Origin: a virus
DNA length: 64,000 nucleotides
Direction: 5' to 3' (one strand)
IMG/VR virus record: IMGVR_UViG_3300008259_000013
Span: 1-64,000 of that record
Below the pieces are notes generated by a model. The model saw only the letters and a list, made by a program, of their open reading frames with translations. It ran no database searches and was not told where the DNA came from. A program made the translations under genes and the position numbers. Shown here one piece after another: positions 36,572 through 36,812 of the stretch (position 1 is its first letter; every line of letters begins with the position of its first letter).

Positions 36572-36812
36572 GCCCATTGTTGTCGCAGTGTAAAGTGACT
36601 GGAACCATTATCACTTGGGCGCACTGTTTGGATTGCAGATCAGGTCACTCAATTATCTGATATACCGAGTATTCCCAGTACCCCAGATTACGTCCCGGTT
36701 CACGACTGTCCTCATTGCTGCAAAATCTAATGTGCAGTTTATACAGGATTTTCTGCACTAGCCTCTCTATCAGTCTTTATTTGCATAAAGCATCAAGCTG
36801 CGTCCTGTTGGC
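36572..36812 (-). ncRNA. candidate ornate ~240-nt RNA with up to three pseudoknots
   Basis: Multiple stems and loop-distal pairings (see findings); GC-richer, no credible ORF, in tRNA operon. Confidence 0.6.

Follow-up and report, generated by a model that had tools for sequence, protein, structure and literature searches.

The window examined here is the first 64 kb (64,000 nucleotides) of a 174.5-kb IMG/VR virus record. Because it carries a RIIA homologue, the phage is taken to be T4-like, and the ~33% identity of that protein to RIIA of KVP40-type vibriophages places it far from its cultured relatives. The minus strand carries nine tRNA genes between positions 36940 and 39280, and a row of cassettes, here called X, A, B, and C, occupies the distal end of the tRNA operon; past B it is 7 nt on to C, and then comes the ATG of a gene. 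The main features are as follows.

37034..37062, minus strand: candidate sigma-70-like promoter (TTGACA-17-TAGATT) just upstream of tRNA-Leu, a pattern match from a consensus scan (10 of 12 positions)
36940..37015, minus strand: tRNA-Leu(UAA), the last tRNA, preceding the row of cassettes
36731..36812, minus strand: cassette A, 82 nt
36725..36730, minus strand: A/U-rich spacer UUAGAU between A and B, a putative cleavage site; similar spacers flank X, B, and C
36572..36724, minus strand: cassette B, consisting of B1 and B2, ~153 nt
36635..36724, minus strand: B1, a rod with bulges that terminates in a three-way junction
36572..36634, minus strand: linker AAUCCAAA plus B2, the latter ~55 nt

A noncoding RNA had been predicted at 36572-36812 from the sequence, and most of what was said of its setting is correct. 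The span does lie inside the tRNA operon, at tRNA-like spacing and on the tRNA strand, and it is richer in GC than its flanks (0.43 to 0.52 over 36500-37100, against ~0.30). The noncoding reading also holds, with no open reading frame (ORF) longer than 48 amino acids (aa) wholly inside the span and none above 60 aa on the tRNA strand between tRNA-Leu and the ATG at 36493. A 132-aa candidate ORF on the plus strand (36715..37113) overlaps the span and is antisense to X, tRNA-Leu, and the start of tRNA-Glu. A small ORF in B (AUG AGG...) was rejected, as it has 20 codons here and meets a stop after 8 in other copies. Like the AATTT-type spacers said to bound the span, A/U-rich spacers (ATTTT, AATTT, and ATATTTT) stand 3' of 6 of the 10 tRNAs and of every module. 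Neither ARAGORN nor a tRNA model found a tRNA from tRNA-Leu (36940) down to the ATG at 36493, or any cloverleaf between 36494 and 36939.

Sigma-70-like TTGAC(A/T) candidates were seen upstream of tRNA-Leu, tRNA-Lys, and a tRNA-Met (37034-37062, 38296-38323, and 38426-38453, all on the minus strand), suggesting several promoters inside the tRNA cluster. In most related phages the gene after B or C is tRNA-Arg(UCU); here it is found at 27028-27105 (minus strand), 9.4 kb from the cluster. Since no tRNA comes after B2 in the window, RNase P cannot make the 3' end of B2 in this phage. Likewise, no intrinsic terminator was found 3' of B2, so that transcripts may read through into the downstream gene.

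Homologues in uncultured phages

Homologues were sought in viral contigs, in one metagenome scan, and in one genome scan; the first pattern scan was built on words such as CAGUGCGCCCAA, and matches were filtered by nhmmer profiles, the sequences being very similar. The filtered set comprised 75 sources with B1, 79 with B2, and 17 with A (window counted), together with two contigs of metagenome-assembled genomes (MAGs) that carry B. Some 80 loci share an invariant core, and the phage's own genome holds one copy each of A, B1, and B2. The remaining matches of the genome-contig scan were due to chance, further scans for additional copies of A returned chance or coding matches only, and a search anchored on the flanking 189-aa protein found no relatives. 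A scan with B1 alone produced no new members, and every B1 locus that it found also has the B2 motif.

The two MAG contigs, both short and assigned to Flavobacterium sp. (L312) and a Gammaproteobacteria bacterium (L336), carry the full B1 plus B2. They are probably phage DNA misbinned with bacterial genomes and give at most a weak hint of the host. BLASTN against 50,697 GenBank phage records matched only tRNA-Leu, with no match to A plus B at an E value of ≤1, and cyanophages P-RSM6 and P-SSM7, which gave the closest tRNA-Leu match, have tRNA clusters without such an insert. The A, B1, and B2 families are common to dozens of related uncultured phages and have no match in Rfam.

All loci were also mapped for the neighbors of B. 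In 25 loci, B1 begins no more than 10 nt past tRNA-Leu(UAA); A precedes it in 11 loci and X in 8. B2 ends no more than 12 nt ahead of tRNA-Arg(UCU) in 7 loci and 13 to 70 nt ahead of it in 8 others. By this spacing, B fills a slot in the array just as a tRNA gene would.

Two separable cassettes

The original prediction described one ornate RNA of ~240 nt, and this did not stand: the span is made up of cassette A and cassette B, set apart by TTAGATTT, and other phages have one without the other. Loci L101 and L078 have A without B, and the element next to A there is a different one with the shape of a tRNA. B begins 2 nt past the CCA of tRNA-Leu, without A, in L022 and many metagenome contigs. 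Modules other than B1 also precede B2, with A joined directly to B2 (the last 55 nt of B) in L102 and L199, element X joined to B2 in L261, and, as judged by eye, a fourth module, D, joined to B2 in L235, L238, and L239. By automated count, B2 is preceded by B1 in 71 loci, by A in 2, and by X in 1.

Alternatively, X-A-B1-B2, with or without C, could be a single multidomain molecule of 240 to 440 nt, its domains packed as in GOLLD or ROOL. The spacers between modules are 6 to 8 nt long, like the B1-B2 linker, and because that linker is no longer than the 6-nt spacer between A and B1, this phage could keep A and B as one molecule. Moreover, the order X-A-B1-B2-C is seen again in L217, and the entire block from 36500 to 36940 is GC rich. 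We nevertheless consider one large RNA unlikely, given that the modules occur singly and in varied orders and combinations in related phages and that no pairing between modules is conserved (GCTTGAT/ATCAAGC occurs in the L002 type and not here, and GAACC/GGUUC is not conserved); nor is there an Rfam match to GOLLD or ROOL.

The neighboring elements were also recurrent. Element X (36820-36934, minus strand), directly after tRNA-Leu, was found by nhmmer in ~20 related loci, where it usually precedes A or B1 and is fused once to B2 (L261). Element C (36500-36563, minus strand) is a 64-nt three-way junction present in ~30 loci, often 5 to 7 nt upstream of tRNA-Arg(UCU), which makes it another cassette and not a leader specific to the downstream gene of this phage. 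The tRNA-shaped element after A in L101 (~11137-11215, plus strand) and L078 reads CGGCAAG...GGTTCAAGTCC...CTTGCCG and is not called as a tRNA by ARAGORN. Finally, an element of ~150 nt lies 3' of B2 in L235 (~1700-1940, minus strand), L102, L199, L238, and L239; it has a 7-bp acceptor-like stem (GCUGAGG/CCUUAGC), then UCCA, and a T-arm-like hairpin, and resembles a large tRNA mimic, again with no ARAGORN call.

Covariation in cassette B

All eight stems and all three long-range complementarities listed in the original prediction were found on the minus strand. Folding energy was unremarkable: by minimum free energy (MFE), the 241 nt gave a z score of -0.5, 59 of 200 shuffles being as stable, and the parts gave -0.77 (A), +0.40 (B2), and -2.46 (B1). 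The case therefore rests on homologues. For B, an alignment (A2) of 39 distinct sequences was used, and the structure was refined from RNAalifold together with compensatory changes in divergent copies.

On this alignment, 98.6% of 1,826 cells pair. Covariation was present, with 14 of the 47 pairs of B changing on both sides, compared with 6.9 ± 1.2 in shuffles (0 of 500 reached this value) and 0 to 3 in controls in which the partners were slid by 1 to 3 columns. Examples are the G-C-to-C-G changes of L256 and L228 at two pairs of P1 and a U-A-to-C-G change in L117. Frequent G.U pairs fit only the tRNA strand, and the fold is thus specific to the minus strand. Many unpaired nucleotides are also invariant across phages with different neighbors. 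Cassette B is a conserved structured RNA under selection for its secondary structure.

Among the predicted stems of the whole span, CTTTAT/ATAAAG, GTGCAG/CTGCAC, ATCTG/CAGAT, TACTGGG/CTCGGTA, and AAGTGA/TCACTT show compensatory changes in homologues. TTGCAG/CTGCAA (core GCAG/CUGC), AGCTT/AGGCT, CAGTG/CACTG, and ACAGGA/TCCTGT are invariant, so that covariation speaks neither for nor against them. The GCAA loop proposed as a GNRA tetraloop is present in the window but is not conserved, other copies having a 9-nt loop.

A span with no functional RNA, its complementarity being due to chance, to decayed tRNA genes, or to a signal at the DNA level, would agree with a full-span MFE no better than that of shuffles. 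This reading is barely credible in view of the compensatory changes, the strand-specific G.U pairs, and the ~80 loci with an invariant core, and ARAGORN and the tRNA model detect no tRNA signal.

Architecture of B1 and A

B1 begins with an invariant UUU leader, after which comes the rod P1, a series of short helices (GCAG/CUGC, AU/AU, AGG/CCU, an R-Y pair, and CAGU/AYUG) with invariant bulges between them. The R-Y pair is A-U in 16 sequences and G-C in 20, and the strand AYUG is ACUG in the family and AUUG, with a G.U pair, in the window. At a tight three-way junction the rod meets hairpin P2 (CGU/ACG), which has a freely variable loop of 5 to 9 nt, and the P3-P4 arm, AUCU...AGAU around GUACUGGG/CUCGGUAU, which covaries heavily. 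Among the 39 sequences, pairs changed on both sides in 4 of 14 cases for P1, 1 of 3 for P2, and 6 of 14 for P3/P4, with 98 to 100% of cells paired.

At six B loci (L100:582-838, L120, L146, L196, L217, and L253), the tip of P4 bears a conserved insertion of ~100 nt, an optional peripheral domain. An invariant core combined with variable loops and an optional P4 insertion is what functional RNAs typically show. Two readings of the B1 junction were tried and rejected. Against a hammerhead, the sequence CUGAGYGA does not fit CUGANGA, and Y86 covaries with R16; the kink-turn reading, which concerned the GA bulges, fell on the same ground. Because this junction nucleotide covaries as a Watson-Crick pair, the junction fits neither a hammerhead nor a kink-turn.

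The pairings of cassette A are as follows.

36790-36786 with 36779-36775, minus strand: hairpin CUUUA/UAAAG, one compensatory pair
36758-36753 with 36737-36732, minus strand: hairpin GUGCAG/CUGCAC, one compensatory pair
36799-36795 with 36764-36760, minus strand: possible helix AGCUU/AGGCU, invariant pairing
36808-36803 with 36748-36743, minus strand: possible pseudoknot ACAGGA/UCCUGU, invariant pairing

Only seven distinct copies of A are available, and they are 93% identical. The compensatory changes in the hairpins are A-U to G-C and C-G to U-A. AGCUU/AGGCU and ACAGGA/UCCUGU are invariant except for one A-U-to-G.U change, and RNAalifold favors another pairing for the 5' end of A. Judged by its sequence and these changes, A is probably a structured RNA.

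The B2 domain and the candidate pseudoknots

The elements of B2 are as follows.

36626-36622 with 36590-36586, minus strand: S1, CAGUG/CACUG, invariant in all copies
36620-36616 with 36576-36572, minus strand: S2, GCCCA/UGGGC, compensatory changes
36615-36610 with 36599-36594, minus strand: hairpin P5, AGUGAU/GUCACU, with a T-loop-like UUCCA loop
36585-36577, minus strand: A-rich strand of 9 nt, its last five positions A-rich and nearly invariant

The variable pair of S2 (GCCCA/UGGGY) is G-C in 24 sequences, G.U in 12, and A-U in 1, one position of P5 occurs as four pair types, and the A-rich strand has an invariant A at alignment columns 159, 160, 162, and 163. S1 crosses S2, which makes B2 a candidate H-type pseudoknot with an inserted hairpin. 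S1 never varies, so that covariation is silent on the crossing helix; as the B1-only scan returned no B1 without the B2 motif, this invariance does not stem from the search patterns. If S1 pairs, the geometry is sterically ordinary, with a first loop of 1 to 2 nt, P5 inserted at the junction, and a third strand of 9 nt. The most likely form of B2, as modeled, is thus an H-type pseudoknot in which a T-loop-like hairpin is inserted and the third strand is A rich.

Three pseudoknots had been proposed, and the full set of three is not established. GCCCA/UGGGC has support as a helix, the invariant ACAGGA/UCCUGU is possible, and GAACC/GGUUC lacks conservation. This last pairing was tried as a kissing loop and rejected: its strength (-7.0 kcal/mol) is confined to this lineage, and in the family as a whole 68% of cells pair, a rate that does not exceed that of shuffled or mismatched loop pairs (permutation P = 0.31).

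Comparison with known RNAs

GOLLD, ROOL, and manA are structured noncoding RNAs often located near phage tRNA genes. The units described here share this character and setting but are far smaller and modular. Searches of Rfam 15 (4,227 families) at gathering thresholds matched only tRNAs, and at an E value of ≤10 with permissive filters over 36200-39500, no family matched within 36564-36940; a noise-level psRNA6 match (11.3 bits), over element C, was the only one to touch the block. Models of GOLLD, ROOL, manA, wcaG, the group I intron, RNase P, tmRNA, hammerhead, twister, pistol, hatchet, and HDV gave no match, bearing out the earlier failure to place the span with the first three, the group I intron, RNase P, or tmRNA.

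Similar in setting are the species 1 and 2 RNAs of T4, rnaC and rnaD, which are also small noncoding RNAs in a T4-type tRNA cluster, at tRNA-like spacing and on the tRNA strand. To our knowledge, these two stable RNAs of the T4 tRNA operon have never been assigned a function. They are 119 to 139 nt long and lie next to tRNA-Arg(UCU), as B does in related phages. The T4 order is tRNA-Arg(UCU), rnaD, and rnaC at 1- to 6-nt spacing, and that of the related phages studied here is tRNA-Leu, B, and tRNA-Arg(UCU). However, the T4 RNAs have tRNA-like features, a canonical GGUUCGAAUCC T-arm in rnaC and a CACC(A) end in rnaD, whereas A and B have no cloverleaf arm or CCA end, and B carries a pseudoknot candidate instead. 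A comparison of rnaC and rnaD with A and B (nhmmer --max, E value of ≤10) gave no match. The T4 parallel is positional, without sequence similarity.

Small pseudoknotted RNAs also adjoin phage tRNAs in the form of HDV-like theta ribozymes (PMC10879173). One or more self-cleaving ribozymes could process the operon, with B2 or B1, for example, cutting its own 5' edge and so freeing the RNA or tRNA upstream, as theta ribozymes do (PMC10879173). B2 has the strand order CAGUG-GCCCA-hairpin-CACUG-linker-UGGGC, with S1 invariant; if S1 pairs, this would be the P1-P2-hairpin-P1'-linker-P2' order of a minimal HDV-like ribozyme, resembling a nested double pseudoknot, and B2 sits 3' of several RNAs. In addition, B1 begins 2 nt past the CCA of tRNA-Leu in many loci, and many unpaired nucleotides are invariant. 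In theta ribozymes the catalytic cytosine is the first position of J4/2, and a C-to-U change inactivates them (PMC10879173). The B2 linker, where the catalytic C would be held, reads CGACAACAA, AGAAAAAAA, UGCAAAAAA, or AAGCAAAAA depending on the copy; C is not conserved and is absent in some copies, with AGAAAAAAA in many, and the HDV-like reading of B2 was rejected on this ground. P1 in that reading is 5 bp long and starts with C, with an A before it, and thus has no G.U at its base; B2 also has a long L3 and 2 to 4 nt between the hairpin and P1'. The theta cleavage site falls within ±5 nt of a tRNA end, whereas B1, A, or X stands between B2 and the tRNA. The Rfam ribozyme models, those of self-cleaving classes included, gave no match at an E value of ≤10. 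The suggestion that the span might be a ribozyme is accordingly not supported, processing by such ribozymes is improbable, and nothing was found that indicates catalysis.

The tRNA-like 3' ends of plant viruses of the turnip yellow mosaic virus (TYMV) type would share with B2 a 3' H-type pseudoknot stacked on a hairpin with a T-loop-like loop. B2 differs in having no CCA end and in that its continuous strand is the 5' strand and not the 3' strand, and the Rfam Tymo_tRNA-like model had no match in the region.

Discussion

With moderate confidence, we favor the view that A and B are two independent noncoding RNA cassettes, processed stable RNAs that are positional analogues of the T4 species 1 and 2 RNAs. 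In this model, A and B would be cotranscribed with tRNA-Leu, possibly from the TTGACA-17-TAGATT candidate at 37062..37034, and freed by the host nucleases that mature tRNAs. RNase P would act where the next tRNA begins, RNase E-type cuts would fall in the A/U-rich spacers, and 3' exonucleases would be halted by structure, so that A and B would build up as stable RNAs of small size and correspond in position to rnaC and rnaD. Since B2 is found on at least four different 5' modules, we read it as a common 3' handle, which may serve as a cap against 3' exonucleases, as a recruiter of a common partner, or as both; the 5' module would carry the specific activity. Judging from the context, our best guess for the cellular target is a component of the tRNA or translation machinery, either protein or RNA, and a trans-acting function is conjecture.

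Alternatively, the cassettes may be cis-acting elements only, either spacers that guide or protect processing of the tRNA transcript or a leader for the gene downstream. All of their copies lie within tRNA operons, and the row in this phage ends 7 nt before C, after which comes the ATG of a gene. However, the unpaired nucleotides are strongly conserved across phages with different neighbors, the downstream neighbor varies elsewhere among a tRNA, a further cassette, and some other gene, and a 150-nt three-way junction plus pseudoknot exceeds the needs of a spacer. A purely cis-acting role is therefore unlikely, and the reading of A and B as independent stable RNAs is retained.

Non-tRNA stable RNAs in a T4-type tRNA operon are a known kind; the families described here are without an Rfam model or a counterpart in cultured phages. 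This comparison covered Rfam and GenBank phages; a catalogue of 8,495 unnamed RNA candidates from IMG/VR also exists (PMC10690425). What is new for the kind is the architecture, in which exchangeable 5' modules are carried on one shared 3' domain. In a bolder proposal, which we regard as speculative and doubtful, B2 would be a new portable 3' domain (pseudoknot plus T-loop hairpin) grafted on B1, A, X, and D, and would be either a new class of processing ribozyme or a mimic of the tRNA elbow or acceptor that hijacks a host tRNA enzyme. The row of cassettes would then be a toolkit of trans-acting RNAs that reprograms host tRNA metabolism or defeats tRNA-targeting defenses.

In B, clear covariation, an invariant core, and a shared 3' domain provide a defined, alignable family of ~80 loci for structure probing, processing assays, and partner searches. 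Collectively, this uncultured T4-like clade carries a richer set of putative tRNA-operon stable RNAs than T4 does, and a modular one, which suggests that the non-tRNA passengers of phage tRNA operons are a general class and not a peculiarity of T4.
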